Shown here piece after piece: positions 37 through 31,400 of a stretch of DNA of 64,000 nucleotides. Source of the DNA: an uncultured Planctomycetota bacterium (GTDB lineage: Bacteria; Planctomycetota; Planctomycetia; Isosphaerales; Isosphaeraceae); the NCBI GenBank assembly GCA_963823665.1, contig CAWGMQ010000010.1, positions 416,001 to 480,000 of the forward strand, given 5' to 3'. The notes beneath the pieces were generated by a model. It saw nothing but the letters and a program-made list of their open reading frames with translations. It was not told the DNA's origin and made no database searches. Numbering within the stretch: the stretch's first letter is position 1; the number at the start of each line of letters is the position of its first letter. Position numbers and translations under genes: made by a program.

Positions 37-1038
37 TTGGAGAACGATGGCGTGCTCTTACATTTCCATGCACCATGTTTTGATGGGATCGTGTCCGCGG
101 TTCTCGCGGCTCACTGGTTCCGACGGGAGTTTAGTCGGTCCGAAGTGTGGTTCCGCGAGGTCAACTACGATCTCAAGGATGAGTGGCTACAGAATGCTTT
201 GCCGCCAGATTCGGCAGTCGTGGATTTCCTGTATCATCCGGCGGCCGAGTGGTGGGCCGACCATCACGCGACAACGTTTCTCACTCCGGCGGCTGAGGCC
301 GATTACCTGGAGCGCCGGTCAAGTCATTTCCTCGAGTACGACGCACGAGCGCCGTCGTGCGCCGACGTATTATGGAAGAGATTTGGCGACCAGGGCGAGC
401 AGCTCAAAGAACTCGTGGACTGGGCGGGGGTCATTGACGCGGCCCGCTATCGCTCCGCTGAGCAGGCTATCTTCGCACGCGAGCCCGCACTCCGCCTGAG
501 CGCGGCCCTCGAAGCCACCGCGTATCCCGGCTTTCCCACGCAGCTCGTGCAACGGTTGTTGGTTCGCACTCTCGGGGAGGTTGCCCAGGACCCGCTGGTT
601 CTGAATCTGGCGAGGCGGTACGACGACTTGACCGAACGCGGCATGAATCGTTTCCGGGAACTGATTGCGAGAAACGACCCGGCCGGCGAAGTCCTTGTAC
701 GCCTGGAACCGCCCGGCATTGTCGTCTTTGACCTCACCGAAACGGCAGGTTTGGCGTTTCCGCGCTACGCCCCATTCTTCTTCTTTCCCGAGGCTGCCTA
801 TTCGGCGGGACTGACCCGAACGAGCCATTCCGCTAACCTGACGACGATGCGGAACCCTTGGCGCGACTTTCCGTGTGTTCACCTCGGCAATCTGTGTAAA
901 CACTGGGGCGGGGGCGGACACTCCCGCGTCGGTTCAATCCACTTGAGCGGCGAGCGGCTTGCGGACGCGTCGGCGCGGTTAGCAGGCCTGGTTGAGGAGA
1001 TCCGCCGCTCTGGCTTATTCCCCGGAGATGACTCGTGA
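37..1038 (+). CDS. DHH/DHHA1-family phosphoesterase
   Basis: Motifs HAPCFDGIVSA, VVDF, WWADHH, PSCA and C-terminal GGGGHSRVG; TTG start 9 bp after an in-frame stop at 25-27. Confidence 0.8.
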   Translation: MENDGVLLHFHAPCFDGIVSAVLAAHWFRREFSRSEVWFREVNYDLKDEWLQNALPPDSAVVDFLYHPAAEWWADHHATTFLTPAAEADYLERRSSHFLEYDARAPSCADVLWKRFGDQGEQLKELVDWAGVIDAARYRSAEQAIFAREPALRLSAALEATAYPGFPTQLVQRLLVRTLGEVAQDPLVLNLARRYDDLTERGMNRFRELIARNDPAGEVLVRLEPPGIVVFDLTETAGLAFPRYAPFFFFPEAAYSAGLTRTSHSANLTTMRNPWRDFPCVHLGNLCKHWGGGGHSRVGSIHLSGERLADASARLAGLVEEIRRSGLFPGDDS

Positions 1039-3788
1039 GCGACCCCGTGAAACCACCCGCTGTGAGCGAGCCACGGCGCTATCGCCGGGATGTCGACTTC
1101 GTATTGCGCAAGTCAGACTTTTATCTGAATTCAATCAGCCCCAGTCGATTCAGCCGCTTTTTTGGGATCACAGGGTATCCGCCAGTCGTCGTCCCTCTGT
1201 TCCTCGGATCTTTATGGGTGATATGGCACGGTCCTTCCCTCTTCCGAGCGACCTCCGCTCATCTCGGTTTCCTGCTCATGGCTTCGCTCGGGCGTCTACT
1301 GGCGCCCTCGTTCGCTCGGCAGCGATCGTTGCTGCAGTACCTCGCGCTCCTGCTGTTCTTGTCCTGGCTACTCGTGTGGATCATTGCCGGGGATGCGACT
1401 GAAGCCGACGGAGGTTGCTATCGGCACGCGCCGGCCATCGTCATCGCTTTCAGCTCATGCGCGGCTGCCGTTGTCGCTCCACTCCTCGCGAAGCTTTTGA
1501 TCGGCTGGTTTCGAGGCCAGTTCGAGCGCAGGCAAGATCTGGTCGATTCCGACAATCCGGCGGCGACGCTACCCTGGCGGTTTTCGACGTTCGGCGAGCT
1601 CCTTCCCATCACTGAAATGTTCTTCATCCCGGTCAAGCCAAGATTTGCACTCGCAGGTTTTCTGGTCACTTTGTTACCGACTCTCACTCGTTATGCGCTG
1701 CCCATATGCTGGGCGGCGGCCGTTGCATGTATTCTCGTTCCGCAGCAATACATGCTCATCGGCATATGTGGAGCTGGCGCCGGTGGGATGTTCTTTTTTT
1801 CGGTCGGCAACCTTCTGGGTGAGCGTTTCCGCACCATGTTCGATAGAGTGCATCTTTACCTGTTCAGCGGCGCGCCGCTGGCTCTGTCTCTGGGCGTGAT
1901 CATACTGGCAGTCTGTCGCTGGGAAGAATTTCAGTATGTCTCTATACTCTTGAACTCAACGCCTGGGCCGTTCTTGATTCTGCTGTTGCTATCCAGTTAT
2001 TGCTGTTTATGGCAGTATCAGCTTTGGACTCGAGAGGTATTGGCCGAACATCTGCTGGGATTGCTTGAGTACCCCATCACGCTGCGGATGCGTGCTCGCG
2101 TCCTCTATCCATTTGATAAGAGCAATCAAGATCCTGCCTACGCTACCAACGCATTGGCTGAACATCGGTATGTTCAGGTCCATGGCGGAGGGCTGGCCAT
2201 CATGGGCGAGTACATCGACCACAGCGACGGCCAGACGCATACTTGCTGGGAGTCGTACGGACCCTTTGAATTCTTCGATACCTTGGTCTCCAGGGCCTTT
2301 CGCCGCACCGACGTCAAGCAGGCGGTCCTGCGTTATCGCTTGGCCTTGGACCTCTTGATGCTCGGGATCAACTCTTATCTGGCTGTGCTGAACCTGGCAC
2401 TCGTGTTCTCGTTGGGCGGAGCAATCTACTACTACCTGAATGTGATGGAGCCGGACCCTGCCGTGAAGCTGGTGCAGCAGGCACCTGGAGATCCCTCGCA
2501 GAAGACCGTATCCAAACTGTTGTTCGACAATTCGCCGAAACGGGTCCTCATGGTCGCGGCGTCCGGAGGTGGTTCGCGCGCGGCGCTCTACACCGCGTCA
2601 CTTCTTCATGGCCTTTCCCGCATCGGCGCCATCGATGACGTCAAGCTCACGAGCGGCGTTTCCGGCGGCGGCGCCGGTCTTGCTTACTTCGGGCTCCATC
2701 ACCAGGAGCTGTGTCAGAAGTCCGCTGATCAAGCCTGGAATCGAGCCTACGAGGCACTCGGCGCCCCGTTCATCGATGAGGTCGTGCGCGGCAGCATCGA
2801 GACGCGCATCATTCGTGGAGGGCAGCTCGGACTGCTGCTCACCGAGAGCTTCGAGCGACACATGGACGCCAAGAAGTCGAATACTGCGACGCTCGGAACA
2901 GCTCCCCTCGCGATGATATTCAACACGACTTTGTGCGGCGAAAGCGAGTGGCGTGATGGGCGCTGGTCTCCACCGAATGCGGAAGATGCCGGTGGACGCG
3001 TTCTGTTCACGAACCTCTATCCGCGCAGCCTTTTCCCGCACCCGGATAGGGCCAATCCGCAAACGATTGCCTGGCGATTCGAGGTGATCACCGATCCCGC
3101 TGTCCGCCTGACGCAGGCCGCCGCCGCCAACGCGAACTTTCCTCCGGTCTTCGGCAACCTGGGCGTGGCGATCCAGAGACAGCACCTGTTCTGGATAACC
3201 GACGGCGGGGCCGCCGACAACCGCGGCCTCGAATCGCTGTTGCTGGCCCTGAAATCCGCCCTCGTTGATGAAGCCAAGCAACCGAACGACGTTCGCCGCA
3301 AGCCCCCGGCGCTCTATCTGATCGTCGCGGAAGCATCAGGATTCAGTCTGGACTACTCGCATGATCAAGGTTTGGGCGCCAAGATGAATGCGTCACAACA
3401 GATCACCAATCAACTCATATTTGAGCTCCTCGATGAAATTCGCGATCTCTACGAAAAACTGGGGGCGGACCGAAGTGCCGTGCAATTTCACTACCTTGCC
3501 ATGCCGCGCGTGTATTGCACTCGCGGCGGGATTGCCACGCACTGGATGCTGCCAAGTTCCACGACCTTGGTGGATCCCCGGGAGCCAGATGCGACCCGCG
3601 CCATATCCGCACGCGTGACGCAGGATGAAATCGTCGAGTTGCTCAAAGAGTTGCATCCCGCCACCGACCCGCCTCCGCTCGGTGATCCGAAGCAGAACAT
3701 TGACCAGGTGCGAACGTGGGTCCGGCAGGATCCGCATGGCGAACGTTGGCGGCAACTTCGAAAAGCATTGACGAACGAACAAAAGTAG
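1035..3788 (+). CDS. Multi-TM membrane protein fused to a C-terminal patatin-like phospholipase
   Basis: Many hydrophobic helices in first ~470 aa, then AASGGGSRAA, SGVSGGG (GxSxG) and TDGG; GTGA overlap with upstream stop. Confidence 0.8.
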   Translation: MSDPVKPPAVSEPRRYRRDVDFVLRKSDFYLNSISPSRFSRFFGITGYPPVVVPLFLGSLWVIWHGPSLFRATSAHLGFLLMASLGRLLAPSFARQRSLLQYLALLLFLSWLLVWIIAGDATEADGGCYRHAPAIVIAFSSCAAAVVAPLLAKLLIGWFRGQFERRQDLVDSDNPAATLPWRFSTFGELLPITEMFFIPVKPRFALAGFLVTLLPTLTRYALPICWAAAVACILVPQQYMLIGICGAGAGGMFFFSVGNLLGERFRTMFDRVHLYLFSGAPLALSLGVIILAVCRWEEFQYVSILLNSTPGPFLILLLLSSYCCLWQYQLWTREVLAEHLLGLLEYPITLRMRARVLYPFDKSNQDPAYATNALAEHRYVQVHGGGLAIMGEYIDHSDGQTHTCWESYGPFEFFDTLVSRAFRRTDVKQAVLRYRLALDLLMLGINSYLAVLNLALVFSLGGAIYYYLNVMEPDPAVKLVQQAPGDPSQKTVSKLLFDNSPKRVLMVAASGGGSRAALYTASLLHGLSRIGAIDDVKLTSGVSGGGAGLAYFGLHHQELCQKSADQAWNRAYEALGAPFIDEVVRGSIETRIIRGGQLGLLLTESFERHMDAKKSNTATLGTAPLAMIFNTTLCGESEWRDGRWSPPNAEDAGGRVLFTNLYPRSLFPHPDRANPQTIAWRFEVITDPAVRLTQAAAANANFPPVFGNLGVAIQRQHLFWITDGGAADNRGLESLLLALKSALVDEAKQPNDVRRKPPALYLIVAEASGFSLDYSHDQGLGAKMNASQQITNQLIFELLDEIRDLYEKLGADRSAVQFHYLAMPRVYCTRGGIATHWMLPSSTTLVDPREPDATRAISARVTQDEIVELLKELHPATDPPPLGDPKQNIDQVRTWVRQDPHGERWRQLRKALTNEQK

Positions 3789-6163: not shown

Positions 6164-6274
6164 CTCCACTTCGCCAAGCCCTACAAGGGCGCCGTGAAGG
6201 TGACGGTCCTCGCCGTTATCACGGCTGCCGACGCTGCGTCAAGTACGACTGACTACTCGGCGGTCGTCGGCTAG
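6164..6274 (+). pseudogene. 3' remnant of a planctomycete extracellular-protein gene
   Basis: Reads LHFAKPYKGAVKVTVLAVITAADAASSTTDYSAVVG-stop with no preceding gene body; its end is shared with 23761-23788. Confidence 0.45.
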
Positions 6275-6285
6275 GGGAGGTGACG
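6258..6285 (+). repeat. 28-bp direct repeat, copy 1
   Basis: CGGCGGTCGTCGGCTAGGGGAGG(T/A)GACG, 27/28 identical to 23761-23788. Confidence 0.85.
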
Positions 6286-6391: not shown

Positions 6392-6757
6392 GGGGGCGAA
6401 CCAGGATCGACCGGATGTCTGACGCGACTGGTGGCGTGCCGAGGTTGGTCAGCGGGCCTCGTAAAAAGCAGACCAAAAACTTTAAGTGCCAACAGCAATG
6501 TTGCACTCCGTCTCGCTGCCTAAAAAACAGCAACGGCCTCGCGCCGCGTCTTCTCCCGAGAGACGCGGCCGGGGACGCCAATTCGGGATCGCTCGAGCCT
6601 AACCGCCGGTTGCAGCTCGGGTTAAATTCATGGCTGGCTAAGCCGAAGAGAACCATGCCGATCGGGGTCTCAAGGCCGACAATCAAATGATCGGATACGC
6701 ACGTAGATGCCGTCGCTGATGCTTCTCGGGACGCGGGTGCAATTCCCGCCGCCTCCA
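6392..6757 (+). ncRNA. ssrA: tmRNA, tag peptide ANSNVALRLAA
   Basis: 5' GGGGGCG pairs with 3' CGCCTCC-A including the G3:U Ala determinant; T-arm GCGGG-TGCAATT-CCCGC; tag frame 6488-6523 ends LAA-stop; CCA not encoded. Confidence 0.95.
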
Positions 6758-6975
6758 CTGTTTGCGTTGTAACTCGTTTTCTTGAAAAAACTTGTGCGCA
6801 CGATGGACGCGGGCAAGTAACCCGCCGCCATTGAGTACCTTAAACCGGCGACGTTCATGATAAACATTTCGCCAATAACAGTTTAGGCCGTCGATGTCGG
6901 AACAACTCTGAGTCAAGACGTATTGTAATTTACCTGCGTCGCTGCCGGAATCCCGACCAATTCGTACTTCGCCCA

Positions 6976-9879: not shown

Positions 9880-9970
9880 TTCTCCTTGGTGAACACGAAT
9901 GGCTTACCGAGAAGGATGTTGTCGCCCTCGATCTCGGTCTTGCCGAGCCGGCCGGCGTCGCGAAGCCCCT
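9880..9970 (-). pseudogene. Fragment resembling the C-terminus of a rhamnose/AI-2-type ABC substrate-binding protein
   Basis: AGRLGKTEIEGDNILLGKPFVFTKEN, cut at the serine hydrolase stop codon. Confidence 0.4.
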
Positions 9971-10350
9971 GAGATGGCCGCGATGTGGCACAGCACACAA
10001 TGGAGGAACTGGCGCACCCCCGCGCCGGGATCGTAGGGTTCGCCAATCGCTTCCCGCCACGGCTTTGATCTCATGGGTCGAGAGGGTTGCCCGCAGCCCC
10101 TCGTGCTTACTCGTCAATCGTTTAACGCTTACGATTACCCGTAAACGGCATGATTTTGCGGGTTTTTGTTGACTTAGGCTTTTGCGTCGGTTATTGCTGC
10201 TGCGTACCGACTCTTCCCGTGTTCGATTCGGGTCGGCAACGGAAGCGGGCGGATCGACCCTTGCCGCCGGTGGGATGAATCCATCGCGCGATGCGCTCCG
10301 CGGCTCCCTGTCACAGGCTTTGGCGCGCTGCTTTACCGGATTCCGAGCCG

Positions 10351-11369
10351 ATGCCTTATATCAACGTGCTCTTCTGGAACATCGAGAACTACGGCACTTC
10401 CAAGCACAAGGCGTCGAACGGGGGCAAGGAGCTTTACGCCTTCATCGTCGAGGTTCTCAAGCGGAACGAGGTGCACATCGCAGGCTTCGCCGAAATCCGC
10501 TCGAATCTCGGCGCAGATCGGCGCTGATCTCAAGCAGAAGCTCAACACCGCAATTTCCGGCTCATCGTGGGAGTACAAGGATAGCGCCCAGTTCGTGCCG
10601 AAACGCCTGGAGCAGTACCTGTTCCTGTACGACGAGAGAAAAGTCAAGGCCTACGGGGCCACCAAGTTCCAGCATGTGTTCAAAGACCCTGCCGATCAGT
10701 CGGTGCTGGGCTTCCCGCGGAAGACGAAGGACCGGCCGCCGTACCTGGGCTACTTCGAGACGCAGGACGCCAAGAAGAAGAAGATCGTGGTCGGGATCAT
10801 GCACTCGCCCAACCCATCGGACAAGAAGGGCGTCAAAGAAGCGCCGCAGAAGATCGCCTTGATCGACGAGTTGAAGTCAGGCGACGTCTGCGTCGTCATG
10901 GGCGACTTCAACGTCAAGGCGGTGTCCGACCACAGATCGCCTAATTCGGTCGGCGAAGCCGCCTTCCTGAACCTCGTCAACAAGGGATTCGAGCAGCGCC
11001 TGCTTGACGATGTTCAGTCCAGCCTGATCAACAAGAAAATGGCTTTTGCCGGGATGGAATATGACGATTGCCGGAGCCAGCCGTACGACCAAATCTTCCT
11101 GTACGCCGCCCACGACCGGCCGTTTCACCGTGGGCGATGACGACGACGGGATTGACGCTTTGATCGACAACTGTTCAACCATCGCCCCCGCGGGCTCGAC
11201 CACGTCCGCGAATTCTGACACGTATCTCATGGAGCCTTTGAGGGCGATCCAAAACATCAATTATGGCGAGAGCGAAACTGAGTATGACAACGTCGAGGAT
11301 GCGTTCGTCGCTTTTCGCGGTTATGTGAGCGACCACTACCCGGTTTTCATCAAGCTAACGTACCCGTGA
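10351..11369 (+). CDS. Endonuclease/exonuclease/phosphatase (DNase I-like) protein; frameshifts near 10520 and 11110
   Basis: Ordered motifs across three frames: FWNIEN, FAEI, EQYLFLY, RPPY, MHSP, MGDFN, PYDQIF, SDHYPV. Confidence 0.85.
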
Positions 11370-11425
11370 ACGTCCGGTTGTCGAGGAGAGTTTCCGCCTG
11401 CTCCGCAACCGATCACGAGGGAGCC

Positions 11426-12498
11426 ATGCGCCCGATCAGAACCGACCCGGCCCCGGCCACGTACAGCGAGCAGGCTCAGCTCGACCGCCGGGTCGTGCTC
11501 GTCGAAGGAACCGGGAGCGGTAATGCAGGCTCGAAGAGGCAAAGGAAGTCACAATCAGCTCGCGACTCGACGCGATTGAGACGGCGATCGCCCAGCCTCG
11601 TTCTCGCGACGAAGATATTCCGAATATGGCGAAGGACCTCACCGGATACGAGGCGGCCACGCGTCCCCTCATCACGCAGACGGGCCCCTATTGTGCTTAC
11701 TGTGAGGCACGCGTGGCGTCGGACCTGCGAGCTGAGCCGGTGCTGCCTGTCACCGCGTATCCAAAGAAACTGTTCGCCTACGACCGCCTGCTCCTCGCCT
11801 GCCCGGCGTGCCGGAACGCGCGGCGCCACCGGCCTGCTCGCAACGAAGGCCAATCCGACCTCGAGCTGCTGAACCCCGCGCGATTCGCCTGGCCCCATCG
11901 GTACTGGCAAAGCCTTCACGACGGCGACCACTTGCCGTTTTGCTATCGGCTCGACTTCGAAACCCCGGCCGGCGGAACTGCCTTGCCCCCGGAGGACGAT
12001 CTGGTTCACGAGTACCGCTCCGGTCGCGTGTGGGTCGAGCGGTCCGAATCCCTGGACCGCGGCGCAGTGATGCTGGGTCCGCCACCGGATCAGTTCGAGG
12101 ACGACGACGACCTCGCAGATCGGCCGCGACCCAAAGCGATTGCCGTGCGGATCATGCCGACGGATCCCAACTCGGCCCTCGGTCGCGGCGTGGCCGCAAT
12201 CATCGACCTGTTCAAACTCAACGATAAACTGACCGACCCGTCCGGCGCGCCAAACGCCCTCGACCGTCGCGTCGAGCTCCGCACGATGGCTTATGTCCGC
12301 GCCGTCGACTTTCGGTCCCGCCTGTCCTCAGCCCAGCAGCGCGGCGAAACCAATCTCGAGGCACGGATCAAGGAGCTCGTGAAGGACGCAGCCCAGGCAA
12401 CCGGATTCTGGGGGGTGTGGATGAGCGTCTTCCGCATCGATCACGGCTGGCTCGACGACCTGCTGCCCGGGACTGCGCTGCGTACGTGGGCGCCCTGA
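11426..12498 (+). CDS. Zn-finger HNH-like protein 1, degenerate active site; frameshift near 11540
   Basis: GAGGGAG RBS, MRPI start, GPYCAYCE, RAEPVLP (EH expected), LLLACPACRNAR (CN expected), FAWP, LDRRVELRT, ATGFWGVWMSVF, LPGT. Confidence 0.7.
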
Positions 12499-12579
12499 CC
12501 AGGGCCAGGAACCCGACGGTTCGCGCGATCGCCCGGAGTGATGCATGGTCCAGGTTCTCTCAACACACGAGACTTCCCG

Positions 12580-13776
12580 ATGCGACCCATCATGAAGGTG
12601 CCCATGGGGCTGCTATTGAAGTCGGAGACCCGCGACGCATTGCGCCACATGTTGCTCGAGTCGGTGGGCCCCTACTGCGCCTACTGCGAGTCGCCGATCG
12701 GGACCGATTTTCCCGCCTCGGTCCCAGACCCTGAGTTGCCAGATCAATCGATCCCCTCGGTACGCGTCTCGTGGGCGGCGCCCTTGAATCCGGTCGACGT
12801 CCATCAGAAGAAGGTCCGGGGAAGGTTGAGCTCGCGGCGGTTCTCCGCGGCCTGGGTCAATCAGCACGTCGCCTGTGCCGCGTGTGCGCGGGCGAAGGGG
12901 GACGAGCCGGGGATGGTGGCGGCCTACCGGCGGCTCGCAACGACCAATGACCAAAAGTTCCAAGAACTGGCGCTCAAGCTGGGCAACCGGCGTTCGTACA
13001 CTGAGGACGACTTCGACGACTTGTTCATCGCCGCCCTGCAGTCGTGGGTTTGGCCCGACACATCGAGCGATGAGGACGGCATCATCGTGCGCGTGGGTGA
13101 CCCGACCTACGACCTGTTTACCTACAGGGAAGAAACCGTGAGCCAGGTGGATCTCGCCGGACGGCGACTGGTGCGAGGGGGCCGGCTGCCCGCGGGCGCC
13201 AACCAGCCGTGCGCCGGCGTGTGGGTCATCCCGAATGATTCGTATATAAACAATCAAATGGACCACGATGACCTGCGCGATCGCGTGGTGTCGACGATCC
13301 TCGGGTTCGACCTGAACCGGTTCGACCCGACGTCGCTCGACCGCCGCGTCGAGAACCGCACTCTGGCGCTTCCTGTCGTCAGACGCAGTCTCGACCGCCT
13401 CAGGGATGTGGTGAGGTCGACCCCGAGGGACCAGACCGATCGCGACAGCGATCTCGACCATGTAAACGTAGAGGTTTTCGCCGGTGCGCTGCGCGAGACG
13501 ATCCGTGCCACCGGCTTCTGGACCATGTGGGCACAGGAGTTCCAGAAGGGGATCATGAGCCTCGCTGATGATGTCTGGCGGCTCTACACCGTCCCTGCGC
13601 GCCACCGCCTCCTGTACCGCATCTTCGTGCAATACGAGGAAGACAACCGCACCCTGTTCAACCGGCAAGCGTACCGGCCAACGAAGGCTTCCCCGATCCC
13701 GCGCGACGTACCAAAGGACGAGATCGTGTTCCAGATGGTGCTGGCCGGCACCGATCCGGAACGCCTCGACTTCTGA
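12580..13776 (+). CDS. Zn-finger HNH-like protein 2, degenerate active site, paralog of upstream gene
   Basis: MRPI start, GPYCAYCE, HVACAACARAK, WVWPD, LDRRVENRT, ATGFWTMWAQEF, LAGT; no EH..P motif. Confidence 0.7.
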   Translation: MRPIMKVPMGLLLKSETRDALRHMLLESVGPYCAYCESPIGTDFPASVPDPELPDQSIPSVRVSWAAPLNPVDVHQKKVRGRLSSRRFSAAWVNQHVACAACARAKGDEPGMVAAYRRLATTNDQKFQELALKLGNRRSYTEDDFDDLFIAALQSWVWPDTSSDEDGIIVRVGDPTYDLFTYREETVSQVDLAGRRLVRGGRLPAGANQPCAGVWVIPNDSYINNQMDHDDLRDRVVSTILGFDLNRFDPTSLDRRVENRTLALPVVRRSLDRLRDVVRSTPRDQTDRDSDLDHVNVEVFAGALRETIRATGFWTMWAQEFQKGIMSLADDVWRLYTVPARHRLLYRIFVQYEEDNRTLFNRQAYRPTKASPIPRDVPKDEIVFQMVLAGTDPERLDF

Positions 13777-13788
13777 GCGGAACAATCC

Positions 13789-16700
13789 ATGGCCGATATC
13801 GACCCGTCCAGCCCGTTGCTCCTCGCGCTTCGCAACCGCCTGAGGGCCAAGGGCACCGCTTTCGAACTCGGTCCCGAAGTCGTCCAGTCGCGCAATATCA
13901 CCTCCCAGTTCCGTGTACTACTTGGTGCTGCCGGCGACAAGCTCGGCGTGCGGGACGCGGCCCCGCCCGCCACCACGGCGGCCTCGGTAACGCTTACGGC
14001 CACGCTCGACCTGGCAGGCGTCACCGGCGGGCAAGGGACCTTCGTGTTCACCGTGCGGCGGTCGGTCTTACAGCTCGACCTGACGTATCGAATGGGCACG
14101 CGCACGATTGCCCAGCTCAAGGCCGCGAAGCTCGTCCCCGACGACATCTTCAAGGCGGGCGCGGCGGCGCGAGCACCTGGGCAGACAGTCTGGTCGCGAT
14201 CGACGGGGCCGTGCTCCAGCTCGACACCGCCGGGCGTTCGCTGACCGTGACGAGCGAAGGCAACGGACCGACCTGGTCCGTGGTTGTCCTTCCCGGCGTC
14301 ACGCTCCCTGCGGTGAAGCCCGACTTCCGGGTGTTCTCCGACCACGCCGCACGGCCAAACCGATATGTGCCCCGCGTGACGGCGAGGATCGACCTCGGTC
14401 TGGCCGGGAGGCTGCCACTGCCGGTCTACCTCCAACTTCCCTCCGGCTACGCCCCCTGGGAGCTCGGGCTTACCGAAAGCTGGTACGTCGGCAACATCAC
14501 CGACCTCGCCAAGCTCTTCGCCGGCCGGAGCCCGGAGCTGCCGGACGGTCTGGTGAGCCTCGGCCAGGTCACGCTCGAATCGTTCACGATGACCCATCCG
14601 CCGGGGGTCGATATCTGGACCTGGGACCTCGCCGCCAAGCTCGGCCGCGTTCCGGACCAGCCCGGCTCGAACGAGCCGCGCTGGTCGATCATCAAGGACA
14701 AGTTCGAGCTCGAAGAGCTCCGCGCCTGCGCTGCACGTCGCCGTGATCGGGACCGGATCTGCTTCGAAAGCGATCACATCCGGATCGGTGTCGGCGAAAT
14801 TCAAGCTCGACACGCTCGACCCGATCGACGCCATGCTCAGCATCCCCGGCTCCGACGGTGGCTGGACACTCGTCGCCACCACGAAGCAATCGCTCCGACT
14901 GGAGCAGACGGCCCCGCTCCTCGGTGGCGACCAGAATGCCCTGAAGTCGAGCGTGGACACGGTTGGGAGCACCGGCGGGTTCACGCTCGAACGGCTGGAG
15001 ATCTCGTTCAAGCCGGCTTCGGACCCTTCGCAGTTCGTGCTCTCGCGGCTCGTGATCGCGGCCTCGGTCACGTCGTGGACGGTGCCACACCAGAATTGGT
15101 TCCGGGTGAAGGGCATTTCAGCACGGCTCTTGGTTCTGAACCCGACCCGCGCCGACAGCGTTATTACCGGTGAGCTGTGCGCGATTCTGGCGCTGGGCTC
15201 TGTCGAGGCTGGCGTCCTGGCGTCGTTCGACCGCGACGCCGTCTGGAAGCTGAGGCTTGCCGCGCGGGCGGTGAACCTCGCCGGGCTGAGCGACCTGTCG
15301 GACCTCGTTTCCGAACCCACGATCAAGGGCGACGACAACCTTCCAGCCGAGCTCCCGACCTCCGGCGGCTTCCGCATGGGGGCGTTCGGCTTCAGCTACG
15401 ACAGCCGGAATGAATACTTCCCGGAGATCGCCTTCGCCCTCCAGAGCGAGCTCGGCTGGACGATCGTCCCCGACGTGCTCGAGCTGGGCGGCATCGACAT
15501 CGCGATCGAGGTCAAGCAGACAAGTAAGAACGCCAAGCCGGAGGTCAGCGGACATGTGAGCGGTTCGTTGACCCTCGCCGGGGTCCCGATTCGGCTGAGC
15601 GCCGACAAGCCGAAACTGGGGGGCCCCTGGACGTTAACCGGCCGACTCGAACGCGAGGTCAAGATCGACTTCAACACCGTCCTGCGCGAGCAGGTGGCGC
15701 CCGACTACTCAATCCCCGCCGGCTACCTTCCCACGTCCCTGTCGATCCGCGCAGCCGAGGTCACGCTCGTCCCCTCGACGCGTGAATTGGAGTTCACCGG
15801 CGCCGCGATGATTGAATGGCCGTTCAACCTCGGCGCGGCGCCGTTTCAGGTCAAGTCGCTGGGCGGAGCGATCCGCCGCGCCGTGGGCCCCGGGGGAATG
15901 CAGACCAGCGGCGAGCTGTACGGCACGATCGCCTTGAGCAACAGCCTCGAGGGCGACGCGACCGTTGCGCTTGGAACGGCGGGCATCGACACGGTCGTCC
16001 AGGTCACGCTGCGGAGCACCGCCGACTCGTCGCAGTTCCGGGTTGGCGCGGTCGCCGAGAGTCTGAGCGGCACGGGAGCGAACGCCCCGGCCGCGTTCGC
16101 AGCTCTGGTGCCGGCGGCCTTGCCGACGGAACTGACCGGCGTCGCCGTATCCATCAATTTGACAAAACGCGTTTACCTCGCCACGGGAACGCTGAAGAAC
16201 TTCGGGTGGGCCTACTTCTTGTACCAGGGAGCGGACGCGCCGCGTCCGCCGGGGGGAGGAGGTACGGGACCTGCGGCAGGGGCCGCGACTGCCACGGGCG
16301 GCTCGGGCTACCTGTTCGCGGCCGGCCTGGGAGACAATTTCAAGTTCGAAAACCTGCTTTCGGGGCTGAAGGGCGTGGACGAAGTGATCTCCGTGAAGGA
16401 GGCGATGCTCGCCGTGTACGCGGCGCCGGGCGGAGCTTTGGAAACGCTGAAGCAAGCGGTCCGTCCATTCGAGAACCGATCCGCGCCGATCCGCTGGCCG
16501 CTGCCCGAAGAGTCTCCGCTCGGGACGGACCTCCCGAGAGAGCGCGGGTTCGTGCTCACCGCCGCGATCGACATGCGCCCGGAGAAGAACAGAGACAACC
16601 TCTTCGAAAAAGTACTTCGGATCGGAACTCTGGGCGCCTCCGACGTGCGGCTGCTGGCGCTCGTCAACCGCGACGCGCCGGACCAGAGCGTCTACAGCGT

Positions 16701-19700
16701 GAGCCTGCACGACATCACGATTCTCCAGAATATGATCACGCTGACCGGCGTGGTGGCGACGTTCCGCCCCGCGAAGAAGGCCGAGCTGACGCTGGCGGTC
16801 GCGATTCTGGTCGAGAAGATCTTCGACAATAACTACCGCTTCCAGGGCGAGCTGAAGCTGACTTCGACCAATATGATTGGCCGGATCAGCCTGCTTGCCA
16901 CCGGCACGCAGAAAGTGACCGAACCGTTCAAGCTGCCCAATATCACGATCGACAGGCTCGAGCTCGGCGTGGAACGGACCTTCGGGGCCCGGGTCAACGG
17001 CCAGGTGACGGACCCGGCGACGCGGTTCGCCCTGTGGGGCAAGGTGCTCTTGGGCGCTCCACCCGCGACGGGGGCGCAAGATCAACGCCCTGCCTTCGAA
17101 GCCAAGCTCGCCCTCGCACAGGGCAAGCCGGCGCTTTTCAGCGTCGCCCTCACCAGCAATCTCGACGTGGGCGCCCTGCTGGCGCAGTGCTTCACGGGCG
17201 ACGCCAGGAACTGGCCGGCCGATTTCATCAATATCGTCTTTCTTAATGGCAGCCGCGTCTATTACTTCAGTGAAGTCGAAGGCTCGGAAGCCTGGAAGAC
17301 CGAGCCCGCCGTAGGGAACGTGCCGGCCGTCACGTACAAGCCGGGCTTCAACGTCGACGCACATATCGTGCTCAAGCTGGTCGAGGATATCCCGCTCCAC
17401 TTCACGCTCGAGTCGGTGCCCGGCGCCGAGGGCAAGCCGGGGGGCGTGAAGGCGACCGTGGCGCCGGAGACGCCCATCAACCTGTTGTTCATCGAGCTCG
17501 CGAGCGTCAGGCTCGAAGGTGATAAGTATGTCGGCGGCCCGACCCTCCAGTTTGCCACCAACCCCAAGACCTTCGGCTTCACGACGGGCGTGAACTTCTT
17601 CGGCAAGGGCTTGCTCGCCGCCGACGTCGGCATCACGCGCAATGCCGCGAACGACGACACCGTGGTCAACGGGTGGATTCAGCCTGCGTTGCAACCCGAC
17701 TTCGGCAATCTGTCTTTCAAGTTCACCTATACGCGCAAGGCGGATGGTAGCAGCAGCTTTTCGATCAGCGACTGGCCGTCGTTCGATGTCGCGCAAAAGA
17801 TCATCGAAATCGCGGCTCTGATCCAGACTGCGGCCGGATCGAAGGTCGGTTGCGAAGCCCTCGCCGAACTGGTCGACAAGGCGCTCTTCAAGACCAAGTA
17901 CTCGGTTACTCCCTCGGCCAAGATGGTGGGCGACAAACTGGAATTCTCGCTCACGGTCTCCTGCTCCATGTCGATCGGGGACGACCCCGCGTTCCTGAAA
18001 TGCGACCTGCCCGAGATCAAAGTCCAGATCCCGAAGAACACGGGTTTCTCTGAGTTGCTGAACAAGTTCATCGACGGGATCCGCCAGGCCGGCCCGGATT
18101 TCGTGCAAGACCTCCTGCGGAGCCCTGATAAGATCGCGCTGTTCCTGGCGATGATGTACAAAGACGAGGCGCTCGGGATCGCGCTCAAGCTGGTGTGCCG
18201 ATCGCGCGTGAATGCGGGGGTGGCCGCGGCCGCTGGCGCGGCGGCCAAGGCGTTCGCGGACGCGATCGCCGCGGGGCTCGCATTCACCGCGGCTATTGGC
18301 GCGGCGACCGGGGTGATCGCGTCCACGCTCGCGAGCCAGGGGGACCAGCAGGGCAGCGATCAGAAGCCGGGCAAACCAACGATGCGCAGCTTCAGCTTTC
18401 ACGGCGCCACCTTCCAGGGCGGTTGGACCGCCGCCGGCGGTGCCGCCAAGTATGAGTTCAAAGTGGCCGGCCCGCAGTTTGACCCGCCGCCGGCGCCGGC
18501 CGTTGCGGCGCTCGGGAGCTCAGTGCCCGCCAATCTCGCCACGCTCGCCGGCACCTACTCTGGCTCCGTCCGCGGCGTGCGTGGTGCGGACAATGGCGAC
18601 TGGAGCGTCCCGTTGACGCTCACCCTGGAGACGCTCGCCACGCCCATCGTCCGGCTCTCGTACGACGGGACGGCGGATCTCTTGGCCGAGTGGACGCCGC
18701 TGGTGGGCGGCCCCTACACGTACGAATTGAGGCTCTTCCGCGACGGGGCTCAGCTCACTCCGCAGGACCGCACCGCCCAGACTCCCGGCTCGCAGCGCTG
18801 GCCCCTGGCCAATCTGGCAGCCGGGTCATATACGGTGCAGCTCGCCGTGAAGGGCGGCGACGGCACGCGCCTCCCGGGCGCCTGGTCGGGGCCGAGCAAC
18901 ACCGTCGTCAAGCTGGCGCCGCCAGTCGTCCAGTCGCTCTCCTACGCCAACGACCGGGTGACGGCAAGCTGGACCGCCGAGCCAATCGCGTCGGCGTTTG
19001 AAGCGCAGCTCGTCGTCGACGGCGGGACCGGCGCGGCCGCGACGCCGGCGTCGCTCTCCGGGTTGAGCGCCCAGTTCGACTCGGCGCCGCTGGCCGTTGC
19101 CACCTATCGTGCGCAGGCCCGGGCCACGGCCGCGACCTTCCCTGCGATCAGCAAAACGACCGCCGCGCCAAGCGACTGGTCGGCGCCCTCCACCCGCAGC
19201 ATCGCGAAGCTGCCGCCGACGGACGTCTGGTCGGTGGGCGTCGACCCTTACGAGGAGAGGATTGGCGCACTGCTGCGTGACGTGCCAGGGGCCGACCTCC
19301 TCCTCGCCCGACTACACGTCGAGGGTGCCGACCCGGGGCCAGCGGGTGGGGCCGAGCCGCCGACCAGGTCCGTGGGATTGCAGATCCCCGCCACCTGGCA
19401 GATCGGGCCCGCTCGCGTCGAGGGGCGCGCGGCACGCTCCGACGGATCCGCGATTGCCAGCAAGTGGACCGCAAAGACGTTGGTCCGGGTTCACGCTCCG
19501 GTGCCTGGCGCGATTTCCTTCGACCATAACACGGGGACCGCCCGTTTGACGTTCTTTTTGGTCCCTCCTCCTCCGACGAACCTCTCCGACCTTCCGAGCC
19601 GTCCGATCCTTCCTACCGCTCCGCCCGCCGCGCCCCCGCAGCGGTATTTGGTCCGGTTCTTCGTTGGCACGCCCGCGCGGCCGTTCGAGCGGATCTCCGA

Positions 19701-22447
19701 GTTCGGCGACTCGACTGACATGGGCCCGATGAGTGTTTCGATCAACGTCGTCGACTTACCCGCCGGGCCGGTGCTGGCGCGGACCTGCACGGTTTCCGAC
19801 GGCCCCGAGCTGGTGCGGAGCGTCTGGCTCGACGTCGCGCCGGCTCTCACGAAACTGGGAATGGCCGCCGTGGTGCAAGCCAACTATGGCATCCAGGCCG
19901 GCGTCATCGGCGTCACGCTCCAGCAGGCGGAAGGACCGGTGTCTGAGTACCAGGCTCAATTGATCGCGATCAATCGCGGGCCAGTGGGGCCGGTGGGCCG
20001 CTCGTCTTCCCCCGTGGTCTCAATCGACTTGCCGGAACTCGAGGCCGGCGCCTACACGCTGCGCGCGGCCAACCTCGACTCTTCCCGAGGTGATCGATGG
20101 CGACTGGACCGAATGGCACCCCGCGACACCCTTCAACGTGCCGCCGCCGCCCACGAACCTGGCCCTGGCGTGGGACCCTTCGCAGCCTCAGCACGGCGCT
20201 GTGGTGGTGACCTTCGACTCCGGCGCGGAGGTCCTTCAGGCGCAACTGGTAGTAAACGGCGTGCCGACTGGCGGTTCGGCCGGACTCTATGTGGCGCCGG
20301 GGGATGCGCACCGGCTGACGATGAATCTACCTCGGCCGGAACACCTGGCGGCGGGCGCCATCGGCGTGCGCGTGCGGTCCGCCGGAAACCCTCCGTTCAC
20401 GATTTCCGGCGCCTGGGTGAAGTCGCCCTCCACCCTTGCGAACCCGGGACCGGCCACCGTCTTGAGCGCTCGATATGACCCGGCGTCGCAGGGCGTCCGA
20501 GTCACTCTCCGGCCACCGAACGGAGTCGTGTCGGAGTACCAGGCTCAGCTCGTCGCGATCGATCGCGGGCCGGTCGAACCAGTGGGCCACTCATCCACGA
20601 CGGAGGTGTTGATGAGTGTGGCGCGCCTGACGCCCGGCAACTACACGGTGCGGGCACGTGCGACCTCGTCGATGGATGGCGACTGGAGTTCGTGGCTCCC
20701 CGCCACGCCACTCACGATGCCCCCGGCGCCGGGCCACGTGGACCTGGCATGGAACCATGAGTTCGACGCCGTCGTCGTGAGCTTCGACCGCGCTCCCGGC
20801 GTTCCGACTTTCGAAGGGCAACTTCTGATCGGTGGTGTTGCGGTCGGCAATCCCGTCGGCATTGGCATGGCGCCTGGGGATCCGGCCCGGGGCACAGTGA
20901 ACATCCCTCTGCCCGACACCCTGCCCGACAACCTATCTGCCGGCGCCCTAGGCGCGTGGGTGCGCTCGAGCGGACCCACCCCGCAGACGATTCCCGGCGT
21001 TTGGCTGTCGTCGCCGAACACGCTCACTCGGCTTCCGGCGTATGGTCAGCCGAGCCTCCGACACGAGAGCGACTCGGCCGAACTCGAGGCCGTCTGGCCG
21101 ACGGCGGCGAGCGCAGTGCGGCTCGAGGTGCAACTTCTTGCGGGCCAGACTCCATTCGGGTGGAAGATGGTCGTCGAATCGCCGCGGGAGCCCGGGCCGA
21201 TTCGCGCCTCGTTCAAATTTGGCGACACTCTCCCGGGCGGCCCGGTCCGGGTACGGTTCCGCCTGGTCTCGGCTGACGGGCAGGGCGTTCCCGGTCCGTG
21301 GACGATCTCGGACGCGCACATTACTCGCCTCCATCCCCCGAGCATTGCCGGAACGTCGTGCGTAGACGGGATCTTGACTGTGAACGTGAATGTGACCCCC
21401 GACCCCGGCATGTCGCGCTGCGGACTGGAGCTTTCGAGCGGGTTCCTCCCGCCGGGCTTCTTCTACTCGGGACTGCCGGTCTCCTTCGCGATCGACACGG
21501 CCAACGGTTTTCCGGGCGATTACTGGCCGAAAGTTTGGGCGATCGGTCGGAAAGACGTCGCGATCAACAGTATCACCGTGGACGGCGCCTCGGTTGTGAC
21601 CCTGCTGGGAAAAACGTCGATCAAGGGGGCCAGATTCGGTTCCGGCAAGATCTACCTCTCCTGGAACAAGGTCGAAGGGCCCTTCCCCGGTACTGCCGGC
21701 GTGGGGCCGCCCGACGCCTACGTGGTGAGGGTCGTTGACGGGAACGGTGGGTCGGTCGCGGGGCACCGTGTCGAGGCAGCGGGCGGCGTGCCGCCAGCCA
21801 CCGCAGCCGCATTTGATGCCGCGCTTCAGCCAGGTGCCGTCTATCGGGCTTCGGTGCAGCTTGTCGGCCGGTCCGGCTCGGGGCACTGGAGCGATCCGGC
21901 GGATCTGCTCGCGTTCGACCCGGCGGATGTGACGGTGCTCGACCCGCCGGTGGGGCTGAACTTTACCTACGAGAACCCGAACGCGCGGGCGCGCTGGACG
22001 GCCCCGCCGATCGCAGGCGCTGTGAGCTATGAGCTGGAGCTGCGCGACGGTGATGGCCGGCCGGTGATGCAAGGCATAGGCGTTCCATCCGGGACGGAGG
22101 CCCTGATCTATTACTTTTCCTTCGCGCAGGTCGACCTGCCCTATACGGGAGTCGTCCGCACGAAGATCGGCACGGGCGCAAGCCGCTGGAGCAGACCCGC
22201 GGTGCTCTGGAACCCGGCGAGCCCGTCATATGCGCTGGCGCAAGGCCTGCGAGGGCAGCGGGCTGAGGACGTCGCCATTCAGATCCGGGGTGCTTACCCG
22301 TTCATTACCGCCACCGCGACGGCCCACATCGTCTTGTACTTGTTCCCGGATTCGGCTCGCAACGTGATCGAGGAGGCGCTGACGCGGGCCTCATTTTTCC
22401 TGGGCCAGATCTATTCGGCGATCGCCGCTGTGTTCCCCGGCAACTGA
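13789..22447 (+). CDS. Giant (~2,900 aa) protein: beta-rich N-terminal region, Ala-rich hydrophobic segment, FN3-like repeats; frameshifts near 14190, 14730 and 20075
   Basis: Four overlapping or abutting ORFs (13789, 14211, 14743, 20090) of continuous composition; FN3-like W...Y.V.VRA...GDWS signatures from ~18370; no evident signal peptide. Confidence 0.75.
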
Positions 22448-22478
22448 GGGGTGTGCGCCTTCTGAAACGAGAGCCCCC

Positions 22479-22914: not shown

Positions 22915-23777
22915 ATGGCAAGGCGATTAGATCGCGCCGAGCCGGTGCTTCTTCATCCCCAGAGAACCGTGCCGCGCCGGCAACGTCTGTTCGCGCCGGG
23001 ATCGACGCGCTCGAGGCTCGAGTGCAGCTCAACGGGGCTTCGGGCGGGGTTCAGATCGGCGTCGATCAAACCACGGCGAATCTCCTGTACCAGGACTTCA
23101 TGAACAATTCGCAGGTCCCTTCCGGCAATACCGGCAACGTCGCCGCGCGCATCGCGGGCACGCTCAGTCCGCAGTATCTTGCGGCCGTCCAGGAAAAGAT
23201 CGACGACCTGCGCTGGACGGCCGGCGATCCAGGAACGATCACCCTTCGCAGGCCAGCGTCAGCGTGACTCAGAACGGCGTGCCGCAACCCGTGACGATCG
23301 AGGACGCGGAGGCAGCCGGTCAGGGTATCGTAGGGACGGCGATCACTTGGATCCTGCCGTCCACCCCCACCGGAGAGCAGCCGGCCACGTACTCGGTGAC
23401 GATCAGCGGCATTCTGAATGCGAACCATCAGCCGCTCCCGGACATCTCCTACACGACAACGACGTTCGTTCCGACGCCCACCACGGCGACCTTGACCTCG
23501 CAGGTGGAATTCCTGGCGCCGACAAACCAGACCGCCTTCGGGTCCGCGACGTCGACGGTCACTTTGGCGCGGAGCTTGAGCGTCGCTGCGCCGCTTTCGG
23601 TGATCGTCCAGGGAAACGGAGTTTCCCAGGAGGTTGACTTTGCCGCGGGCCAGGCCTACGCCACCGCCATCTTGCCGACCGGATCATTCACCCTGACCGA
23701 CCCCCAGGGCGGCGTCGTCGCACCTGGCGGAGGCACGACCCAGGTCGTGCCCTCGAACGCCGGCGGTCGTCGGCTAG
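22915..23777 (+). pseudogene. Decayed planctomycete extracellular protein (LE.R.L leader, Ig-like segments)
   Basis: MARRLD...IDALEARVQL across a frameshift, start of a possible CAP-like domain, abrupt jump to Ig-like strands, ending at the AVVG-stop repeat. Confidence 0.55.
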
Positions 23778-23788
23778 GGGAGGAGACG
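23761..23788 (+). repeat. 28-bp direct repeat, copy 2
   Basis: Matches 6258-6285 with one mismatch. Confidence 0.85.
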
Positions 23789-28448: not shown

Positions 28449-31400
28449 TCATTTGCGGTCCGCCGCCTTCTTCACCGCCATTGGTCCGCCGTGCACGGCG
28501 TCGATCTTCACTCCGCCTTTCGAGATCACGGCAACGGCGTTGCTGCCGGCCGTACCGGTGTCGGCACCGTCGATCAGTCGACCCTCGGCGTCTTGCAGAC
28601 CGCCCGGCGCGGTGCCCTGGACGATCAACTCGATCGCCTTCGAGATCCGCGTTGGCGTCTTGAGCGTCAACGTGACCTCGTCGCTGGAGTAGGCCGCCTT
28701 CTTGACCTTGATCAGGTTCTTCTTCTTGGGAATGAACTGGCCTGACTTGTTGGCCACGATCAACTCGTAGAGAGCGGTGCTCATGGCCTGGGACCCGTTC
28801 AGGGCGCCGCTCCAGTCGACCTGGATCTGCTTCACCTGATGCTTGCTGTTGGTCACGAGGCCGACCGACTGGAGAGTAACCAGAGGCGGCGGCGGAGGTG
28901 TGGTCGCCTGAATCACGAGCATCGCCGTGGACTGGCTGCCCAGTTCGGCGTTGGTTCCAGGGTTGCTCAGGGCGATGGTTACTGTCAATCCCGTCGGGAG
29001 TGCGCCCGTGTTGATGACCGGAATCATTACCGTTTGACTGGTCTGCCCTGCGGCAAAGTTCAACACCTGGTTCACCGGTGTGTAATTGACGCCAGCGACT
29101 GCCGTGCCGGTCGTTGTCGCCACCCGGACCGAGACAGCCCCGGAGTAGCCGCTGGTGCGCACGACCTCGACCGCTGCTTCGCCCACGGTTTCGTTGACAG
29201 TCACCGTGCCGGTGGCAAATGCGACCTGGGCAGGCGGGGAGACGGTCACGGGGTTGGTGGTGACGCCGGTCAAGCCGGTGCTGGAGACCGAGATCGGCAC
29301 GGCTCCGTTCGACTCGGTGAGCAGCAACCCGCTGAAGGTCACTTCGCCGTTGGCGGCGGCGATCGACGTTAACCCGGTCAAGGTTGCGCCCGATCCGGCG
29401 GGCACGCTGGCGACGATCTGGCCGGTGTAAGGCGTGGCGATATTGCCGTAGGTGTCTTCGGCGGCAACGATGAACCCGAAGGCGGTGCCGGAGGTGATGA
29501 CCGACGGCGGTTCTGAGATCAGCACGAGGTGTGTCGCCGGCGCCGGATTGACGGTGATCGATCCCGTCGTGACGGGGGAGAGCCCGGTCGCACTTGCGGT
29601 CAAGGTGTAACCGGTCGCGGCGATCTCGGCGGTGATGAAGGCGTGGAAGTTGGCAACTCCGCCGACGGCGGCCACCGTGAGCGGCCCGCTCAAGGTGGCG
29701 TTGCCCGGATTGTTCTGAAGCGCGATCGTCACGTTGCCGGTGTATCCGGTCGCGAGGTTCCCGAATTGATCGAGAGCGGCGATGGCCAGGCCGAACTGAG
29801 AGCCTGAAGTCATGGTTGTCGGCGGCGGAATGTAGACGATCAGGGTCGTCGCTGTCGCGGGTGTGACGGTGATGGGCGCCGATGGCGGCGAAGTGAGCGT
29901 GCCGCTCGAGGCCGCAATCGTGTACGGACTTCCGGCTGTGTTCAACTGGAGGGTCGAGAACTGGGCCACGCCGCTCGCGGCCGGGGCGATCAGCGTTCCG
30001 CCCAGGACGCCCGTCCCCGGATCGTGCGACAGCGAGACAGCAACATTGCCGTGGAATCCTGTTGCCACGTTGCCGAAAATGTCCTCGGCGGTGATCGCCA
30101 TTCCAAAGGGACTGCCCGCGGTGACGCTCGAGGGCGGCTGGGTCGAGATGACGAACTGCGAAGCGGCCAGCGCAGTCACGGTGACGGCCGTGGTCGTGGC
30201 GGGTGTCAGTCCTGTACCGGAGACTTGAAGCGTGTAGCTGCCCGTCTTGGTGAGGATCAAGCCGCTCGCCGTGGCCACTCCGGCCGTGGCCGTCGCACTA
30301 TTGGCCCCGGTGAGCACGGCGCCGCTGGGCCCTGACAGCAGGCTGATCGTTTCGATGCCGTTGAAGCCGGTGGCGAGATTGCCGTACTGGTCCTCTGCGG
30401 TGATGACGAAGCCGAACTGGGAGCCCGCGGCCACGGTGGTTGCCGGCTCGGTCGTGATGAGAAGCTTCGCAGCCGGACCGGGGTTCACGGTGAAGGCGGT
30501 GCTTGTCGTGCCGGTCAGGCCGGGACTGACCACCGCAAGCGTATAGCCGCTGCCGACCGTGCCCACATTCAGATCAGAGAACGTGGCGACGCCGCCGACC
30601 GCCGTCACGGTGAGCGTGCCACCGAGCTGCGATGTCGGGCCGCTTGCCAGGGAGACCGTGACGCTGCCGTTGAAATCTCCGTCCGGATTGTTCATGGCGT
30701 CGAGCGCTGTGACCTGGAAGCTGAACGCCTGAGCGACGGTGACATTCGAGGGCGGCTCAACGGTGATTTCGAGCGCGACCGCGGGCGTCGGGGTGACGTC
30801 GATCGGGGTCGACGCCATCGAGGTGAGGTTGCCGGCACTCCCCTGGAGTGTGTAGCCGTTGCCGACCTCGGTGATCGACAGGTCGGTGAACGACGCGAGG
30901 CCGCTCACCAGGTTGGCGGTCGTGTCGCCTCCCAGACTGGCCAGATTGGGGTTGTGATCGAGTGTCACCGAGACCGACTCGTTCGAGCCGGTTTCGAGGT
31001 TTCCGTACTGGTCTTCGAGAGCCAGAGCCGCTCCGAAGGGGAAATTGTGAACGACCGAGGACGGCGGCTCCGCCGCCCACACCAACTGGGAGGCCGGAGC
31101 GGGATTGACCGTGATCGAGGTCGACATGGTCGACGTCAGCAGGGGTGTGCTGGTGGCGAGTATCTTGAACGTGCCGGTCGTGTCGATGGCCAGGCCCGAG
31201 AACGCCGCCTGACCGTTTGCCACGTTGAGCGTGGTGGTGCCCGTGAGCGTTCCGCCCGCGATCGAGACGGTCACCTGACCGGAGAAGCCGACGTCGACGT
31301 TGCCGTATGGGTCGAGCGCGGTGACATCCAGTCCGAACGTCTGGCCGGCGATGACACTCGATGGCGGCTCGTTCGCCTGCGTGATGACGAGGTGGTCGGC

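Follow-up and report, generated by a model that had tools for sequence, protein, structure and literature searches.

An apparently undescribed four-gene unit of a planctomycete: a DNase I-like nuclease, two PtuB-type HNH proteins lacking the catalytic histidine and a giant beta-repeat protein

Why would a planctomycete keep side by side a DNase I-like nuclease, two HNH proteins without their catalytic histidine and a protein of almost three thousand residues? The four genes lie at positions 10351–22447 of the window, by which we mean the whole stretch of 64,000 nucleotides analysed here (positions 416,001 to 480,000 of contig CAWGMQ010000010.1, assembly GCA_963823665.1, from an uncultured member of the Isosphaeraceae). 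All four are on the plus strand in the order EEP, HNH1, HNH2, giant, and the gaps of about 56, 81 and 12 bp given in a preliminary description of this DNA proved to be exact. As in that description, no named system could be assigned: none was matched in PADLOC, NCBIfam, PHROGs or the PDB, and no account of the system was found in the literature searched, the coverage of which ended short of subscription papers and bioRxiv supplements. Judged by their sequences, the parts are known and the system is undescribed; on its defining features it falls outside Septu, the type I-A retrons, the classical polymorphic toxins and the DUF6603 cassettes. Tentatively, we read the unit as a released nuclease weapon with the EEP protein as payload, the dead HNHs as docking parts and the giant as carrier, which we regard as plausible rather than probable.

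The first gene (10351–11369, +, about 339 aa, two frame breaks) encodes a DNase I-like EEP nuclease with a predicted intact active site. In NCBIfam it matches MnuA (E = 2.5e-10), and in the PDB the family profile matches DNase gamma (E = 4e-9) best, together with DNase I. The catalytic motifs WNIEN, E, HSP, GDFN, YDQ and SDH are all present in the window copy, and each of them is kept in 24–28 of 29 family members. This full motif set is common to DNase I, DNase gamma and Mycoplasma MnuA. Unlike DNase I and MnuA, however, the window protein has no signal peptide and is encoded together with pseudo-HNHs and a giant.

HNH1 (11426–12498, +, about 357 aa, one frame break) and HNH2 (12580–13776, +, 398 aa, intact frame) are PtuB-like pseudo-HNH proteins and paralogues of each other (hhalign probability 99.9). 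Against the PADLOC PtuB profile PDLC00315 they score E = 2.6e-23 and E = 2.5e-8, respectively, and both matches are far below the NCBIfam PtuB equivalog cut-off; in the PDB the HNH2 profile found only weak HNH matches, and among 50% representatives 55 matches, a few of them spurious. Both proteins retain two CxxC motifs and the C-terminal DRR..RT/GFW..W region. The EH motif is lost, and HNH2 has an insertion at the catalytic loop. The two had been called inactive from the window copies, and their orthologues bear this out, with the catalytic His of HNH1 missing in 6/6 EEP-bearing loci and the EH motif of HNH2 in 6/6 (HNH2 of locus L008 retains the His alone). Since orthologues also lack the His, its loss is not a sequencing error. 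In PtuB of Ec78 the HNH histidine, H57, is required, and the helical C-terminal domain of PtuB docks on the partner PtuA, according to PMC12819146. In the dead HNH copies this helical domain is the best conserved region.

The giant (13789–22447, +, about 2,890 aa, three frame breaks) can be divided into four parts. Its core (13789–18050, +) consists of repeats of about 130 residues whose alternating hydrophobic pattern suggests beta structure; self-comparison with hhalign gave offsets of 260 and 389 residues, and each repeat contains a short helix-loop. A helical, Ala/Gly/Val-rich hydrophobic stretch with an L[VI]C motif (18106–18342, +) is a candidate membrane-insertion hairpin. Motif and stretch are present in 17 of the 20 giants examined, being missing in Ralstonia, P0090 and P0092, and the Cys of the motif and a second conserved Cys upstream are both nearly invariant in alignment A6. 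An FN3-like stalk of at least eight repeats follows (18391–22210, +; Pfam fn3, E = 1.6e-10; the iterated FN3 profile found 4 + 4 repeats in the two pieces of the protein), and a short, probably helical tail without a family match forms the C-terminus (22211–22447, +). PDB profile searches with the giant gave nothing meaningful, and the ESM Atlas returned unnamed clusters only (best 0.91 and 0.87) besides a weak DUF6603 lead at 0.77.

At their C-terminal ends the giants of relatives vary among carbohydrate- or ligand-binding folds, with FBA, PQQ, Kelch, LVIVD, LamG, ricin-B, Big_1 and jacalin-like domains in this position, or end in long helical repeats. Enzymes, to judge from two fusions, sit at the N-terminal end: in P0046 an intact HNH is joined to the FN3 and N-terminal region of the giant (27% over 416 aa, E = 2e-10), and in P0091 a metallo-beta-lactamase (MBL)-fold hydrolase is fused to a giant. 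Two giants of 3,550 aa (L076:6340-16992 and L077:6334-17043, the latter adjoining an RHS gene) end in about 1,500 residues of Ala-rich helical repeats that belong to no Pfam family. A stand-alone jacalin-domain protein whose N-terminal part is probably helical is encoded directly after the giant at L009:19784-20689. The search for a helical docking repeat common to giant tails and downstream genes gave one weak match only.

Six frame breaks interrupt the genes, at about 10514 and 11106 in the EEP, 11523 in HNH1 and 14165, 14725 and 20063 in the giant. One or more public short-read contigs show an indel relative to the window at each of these places, and by frame arithmetic every such indel brings the flanking pieces into one frame, the support for four of the six indels being one contig each at a depth of 2 to 4. 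The public runs that carry the stretch are soil metagenomes, and the bacterium probably comes from soil. With short-read indels at all of these places, the six breaks are most likely long-read assembly errors. Full-length homologues without breaks exist for the genes of the unit. Intact giants are present in loci L007–L014 and L019, and the full-length homologues P0002 (2912 aa, 43%) and P0003 (2881 aa, 40%) span the frame breaks of the giant.

Do the four genes belong together? The preliminary description had made this depend on their co-occurrence in other genomes, and the four-gene order is indeed found in five further loci, namely in Methanothrix (L007), Anaerolineales (L008), Chloroflexota (L009), Salipiger (L011) and on a soil contig (L019). 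Including the window there are thus six distinct loci, the others coming from two bacterial phyla, an archaeon and the soil contig; an intact one is carried by Salipiger pentaromativorans P9, a non-pathogen in culture. Scans anchored on HNH2 had given 18 loci, which after merging of near-duplicates left 10 with long HNHs, two of them on short contigs, and 3 with an ordinary short PtuB beside an ATPase-like gene. HNH-HNH-giant loci without an EEP were found in Terriglobia, Thermoanaerobaculia and Asticcacaulis, and a genome-wide search for the EEP family in these three hosts found it in none. From searches of genome samples 14 regions were fetched, which yielded two more Thermoanaerobaculia loci and a truncated one of Methanotrichaceae. 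Matches were seen in 13 further of 300 Thermoanaerobaculia genomes (HNH matches, 2 of these with a giant), in 1 further of 104 Methanotrichaceae, in 4 of 400 from the planctomycete phylum (weak, PtuB-like only) and in 4 further of 300 from the class of G704 (weak and short). Loci L003, L005, L006, L015, L016, L023 and L024 and 11 of the 14 fetched regions were set aside as ordinary short HNHs, and L004 is unrelated. Three more are not counted as complete: L021 and L022, each with two intact HNHs, lie on short contigs, and the contig of L078 breaks off upstream.

With Ralstonia taken as a single locus there are 12 complete loci, each of which has retained two HNH genes and, as judged by sequence motif, one or more intact nuclease sites. 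Six have two dead HNHs and an EEP, three have two intact HNHs and three an intact and a dead one; the EEP occurs in 0/6 of the last two classes. For further HNH2 proteins, with identical sizes as a proxy for the same contig, an EEP accompanies 3/10 His-less proteins (the other 7 are unmatched) and 0/10 His-bearing ones, and P0010 is a fourth match by the same proxy. The proposal that the EEP is cargo and the dead HNHs are adaptors, made from the window alone, has gained support from this distribution, in which the EEP is found exactly where both HNHs are dead, and from the P0046 fusion.

A related operon occurs in the Ralstonia complex. Plasmid searches, with matches only when homologues were used as queries, returned 133 megaplasmid records matched by both HNH and giant, of which L036, L037 and L038 were examined. 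The operon (L037:11149-26771, the same in L036 and L038) encodes an HNH, a degenerate HNH and a 2657-aa 'haemagglutinin', followed by two genes that read as macro-like from their sequence, a DUF6508 gene and a sphingomyelinase-like gene. HNH1, degenerate HNH2 and a giant with the same beta core are thus in the same order as in the window. It differs in its intact HNH1, the absence of an EEP and the ADP-ribosyltransferase (ART), macro-like, DUF6508 and sphingomyelinase-like genes that follow, and it is characterised by expression only. One of the macro-like proteins ends in an ART domain resembling PDB entry 6dre (E = 1.2e-9), which we take to be the antibacterial toxin Tre1 of the type VI secretion system (T6SS); the entry itself is titled 'PAAR repeat-containing protein'. 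An acid-sphingomyelinase-like, probably secreted phosphoesterase is encoded after the giant in two distant loci, L076:16980-18602 and L037:23739-25172.

By its gene order the Ralstonia operon is probably RSp1603–RSp1610. In PMC5615195, RSp1603 is annotated as HNH nuclease and RSp1605 as haemagglutinin, matching the order of L037. All genes from RSp1602 to RSp1610 are reduced 5- to 36-fold in a mutant of the quorum regulator PhcA, with values of -22.9, -35.5, -17.2, -12.0, -7.2, -7.6, -5.3, -6.5 and -12.5 in the same source. Since the neighbouring effector gene RSp1601 is also lower in the phcA mutant (-5.4; PMC5615195), some of the PhcA effect may be regional.

How could such a unit work? In the reading as a nuclease weapon the EEP would be the payload, which the two dead PtuB-type HNHs would dock onto the front of the giant, perhaps acting as a safety catch as well. 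That both dead paralogues have been kept across phyla speaks for such a structural role. The giant would bind a target surface through its FN3 stalk and tip, and its hydrophobic helices would insert into the target membrane. Release would probably occur by lysis, because neither a signal peptide nor a shared secretion system was found. In lineages that keep the EH motif the HNH itself would be the likely payload, which in the lineage of the window may have been replaced by the EEP. We infer all of complex formation, release, membrane insertion and target.

Several observations weigh against the nuclease weapon. The N-termini of all four proteins have no signal-peptide-like hydrophobic stretch, as had been noted before: their best Kyte-Doolittle 11-mers score 0.3–1.5 compared with 2.5–2.6 for two Sec-type controls, and the twin-arginine motif is absent from the four, a Tat control having scored 1.5. 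The eCIS marker (extracellular contractile injection system) Pvc16_N occurs in 5 of 9 host genomes and the T6SS marker VipB in 1 of 5, neither in this one, which is 92% complete. No immunity-like gene was seen in the unit of the window, and no recognisable tip on its own giant. The CxxC zinc sites and the descent from PtuB suggest a cytoplasmic location and a role in defence, and the hosts have very different envelopes. Furthermore, in a quick tree the His-less HNH1 sequences (6 rows) form one clade (SH-aLRT 97), as do the His-less HNH2 sequences (22–23 rows; support 95 and 87), the short degenerate HNH2 of Ralstonia lying outside the latter on a long unsure branch. Because each set is a single clade, the match between EEP and His loss would count as one evolutionary event, comprising double HNH loss and EEP gain, and not as six. 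The Ralstonia comparison is weakened as well. The mapping to RSp1603–1610 was made by annotation order and position, not by coordinates, and the Ralstonia giant has neither FN3 repeats nor the hydrophobic motif, helical repeats taking the place of the stalk. Consequently, regulation and the ART domain may not transfer, and the operon is a distant guide.

The main alternative, possible though somewhat unlikely in our view, is a Septu-derived system that acts inside the cell against phages or plasmids. The giant would take over from PtuA as scaffold and sensor; its variable tips would sense an invader or a damage signal, whereupon HNH or EEP would be unleashed for abortive infection. This would suit two PtuB relatives without signal peptides in a unit of patchy spread and clean insertion, and in the HNH tree ordinary PtuB genes beside ATPase-like genes sit among the EH-bearing rows. 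Several hosts, namely Methanothrix, Anaerolineae and Streptomyces, are presumably filamentous, which would suit it too. The surroundings do not speak for defence, however: only 3 of 36 flanking open reading frames (ORFs) match PADLOC at E<=1e-10, all of them by generic ATPase or FAD domains, and of the window neighbours 0/6 matched. An NTPase is missing too. The preliminary description had reported both an ATPase and a reverse transcriptase (RT) as absent, and indeed no ATPase gene was found in the unit or beside the HNH pair in giant-bearing loci, and no RT match in the unit or the scanned neighbours. Moreover, FN3 stalks tipped by a lectin or a propeller, like EEPs of the DNase I/MnuA type, are typical of extracellular proteins.

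Less probable is an adhesin, exposed at the surface or released, that displays a DNase against extracellular DNA for biofilm dispersal, scavenging or escape from DNA traps, without any delivery. MnuA and DNase I as closest relatives of the EEP and the lectin tips of related giants would agree with it, and RSp1603 is suggested to affect biofilm DNA and the giant annotated as haemagglutinin-like in PMC5615195. There is neither a signal peptide nor an anchor, though, and an adhesin would leave unexplained why two dead HNHs are retained, why the hydrophobic stretch is conserved and why the Ralstonia operon has an ART domain.

Rather improbable is a role at the producer's own membrane, with the beta repeats of the giant forming a lipid-carrying groove of the AsmA/TamB or repeating-beta-groove type and the nucleases as passengers. 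The repeats of about 130 residues with one short helix-loop each may resemble repeating-beta-groove units, and a sphingomyelinase-like gene follows in two loci. However, the giant has no N-terminal membrane anchor and no Pfam or PDB match to such proteins, monoderms and an archaeon are among the hosts, and a nuclease is kept in all complete loci. It is hardly credible that the genes in the window are decaying pseudogenes or stand together by chance, in spite of six frame breaks and two HNHs without catalytic His, given that all breaks coincide with short-read indels, the order is conserved across phyla, intact orthologues are His-less too and 15 of the 27 listed strain differences of the giant fall on third codon positions, a mild excess.

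Compared with known systems, the HNHs resemble those of Septu (PtuAB) and of the type I-A retrons Ec78 and Ec83, in which PtuB-type CxxC-HNH proteins begin with MRP and end in a conserved helical domain (PMC12819146). Septu, however, has neither two long tandem paralogues without the catalytic His nor an EEP and a giant joined to them, and the window has no PtuA ATPase; in contrast to the type I-A retrons there is no RT and no non-coding RNA (msr-msd) beside the HNHs. With the polymorphic toxins, including TANFOR-FN3, the unit shares large modular proteins, FN3 repeats, variable ends and nuclease effectors (PMC3482391, PMC7073777). Its polarity is reversed, since the enzymes are located at or before the N-terminal end and the binding domains at the C-terminal end. 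The C-terminal ends of the giants are binding folds or helical repeats, not a toxin domain, and macro-like/ART and DUF6508 proteins occur only in the Ralstonia relative. Also unlike classical polymorphic toxins, the unit has no known trafficking domain or signal peptide and no downstream immunity gene. Diphtheria toxin, the large clostridial toxins and other AB toxins made of a single chain consist of an enzyme, a hydrophobic helical segment and a C-terminal receptor-binding part. The layout in the window follows the same order of parts, by analogy only; it differs by the absence of a PDB sequence match, by an enzyme that is usually a separate gene and by the absence of any sign of an animal target.

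A further likeness is with the DUF6603 cassettes, for which no descriptive paper was found in the literature searched. Three cassette regions were compared, one of them broken, with two intact DUF6603 proteins. In a small ORF set the profile of the giant matches both of these in their N-terminal part (E = 1.5e-11 and 4.3e-6), with an hhalign probability of 86, while the domain PF20248 itself has no match in any giant scanned nor in this genome. Hence, of the DUF6603-likeness suspected in the preliminary description, the beta repeats shared with the N-terminal part of DUF6603 proteins stand and the DUF6603 domain does not. In the cassettes a beta-repeat core of the same kind precedes the DUF6603 domain, and an exchangeable enzyme gene lies directly in front, as EEP or HNH does in the unit: an EEP related to that of the window (87 bits) heads the cassette in G518, an MBL-fold gene that in G659. 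Two of the cassettes (L044:12359-18417 and L046:2909-8726) lie in planctomycete genomes. The window unit, in contrast, is without PF20248, has a tandem HNH pair and combines the FN3 stalk with the tip in one polypeptide; it ends at its one giant, after which the DUF2277 gene follows, whereas the cassettes have several large companions. By these sequence features the unit is a cousin of the DUF6603 cassettes and not a member.

The unit is accessory, as the preliminary description had held. It corresponds to an inserted, or elsewhere deleted, segment of about 12.6 kb (9883–22463) between a serine-hydrolase gene and a DUF2277 gene. In the same-genus genome G401 (84% complete) the two flanking genes are 209 bp apart and the unit is absent; therefore, it is the four genes that have been gained or lost. 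A sample of 100 relatives gave no match to the giant, and horizontal spread of the unit is likely. No paralogous locus was found elsewhere in the host genome, which comprises 16.46 Mb in 12 contigs; a same-genus genome has 16.1 Mb, and both sizes are very large for a planctomycete. A plasmid search with the core of the window's giant gave no match, the giant was not found in 50,697 phage records or in PHROGs, and HNH2 was not found in viral contigs. Scans for promoters and terminators of the unit remained at chance level.

The suspected association with ssrA is not supported. A transfer-messenger RNA (tmRNA) gene is the only Rfam match between positions 6000 and 26000 of the window, and a tmRNA island was considered and rejected: the genome has three full tmRNA genes (window 6392–6758, contig C10 near 360.5 kb and contig C8 near 2039.5 kb), no duplicate of a tmRNA 3' end was found downstream on this contig, and the neighbours of the unit are the serine-hydrolase and DUF2277 genes. 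Two of the three tmRNA genes are on C10 and one, with a slightly different tag, is on C8; together with several partial 3' copies this multiplicity is unusual. A 28-nt direct repeat (96%) at 6258–6285 and 23761–23788, 17.5 kb apart, encloses tmRNA and unit. The stretch next to its right-hand copy has matches at several places in G401 and, hence, the 28-nt sequence is probably a dispersed repeat. Other genes in the window are a DUF1559/H-X9-DG gene near the unit, which points to a planctomycete host, a gene (28449–38699, -) whose 3,416-aa product combines a Calx-beta domain with four proprotein-convertase P domains, and one for a 917-aa patatin-domain protein (1035–3788, +) that has no assigned domain in its N-terminal 500 residues and no PADLOC match.

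What the unit may mean reaches beyond this planctomycete. It would show cleanly how one effector takes the place of another: the two ancestral nucleases are dead yet kept, and a DNase I-like enzyme is added. Two PtuB paralogues together with a giant are not part of any named defence or toxin system. Through the unit the uncharacterised DUF6603 giants are linked to nuclease cargo and gain a compact four-gene model, and a related quorum-regulated operon is present in 133 Ralstonia megaplasmid records under the label 'haemagglutinin' only. A bolder and rather doubtful proposal is that of a new class of protein-delivery machine in bacteria and archaea, in which a duplicated Septu nuclease has become a two-part adaptor. 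It would place one or another enzyme (HNH, DNase I-like, MBL fold, ADP-ribosyltransferase) on a giant beta-repeat carrier that has membrane-insertion helices of its own and swappable glycan-binding tips. If this were true, the same core would explain the widespread DUF6603 cassettes. Whether weapon or immune system, either would be a new mechanism.

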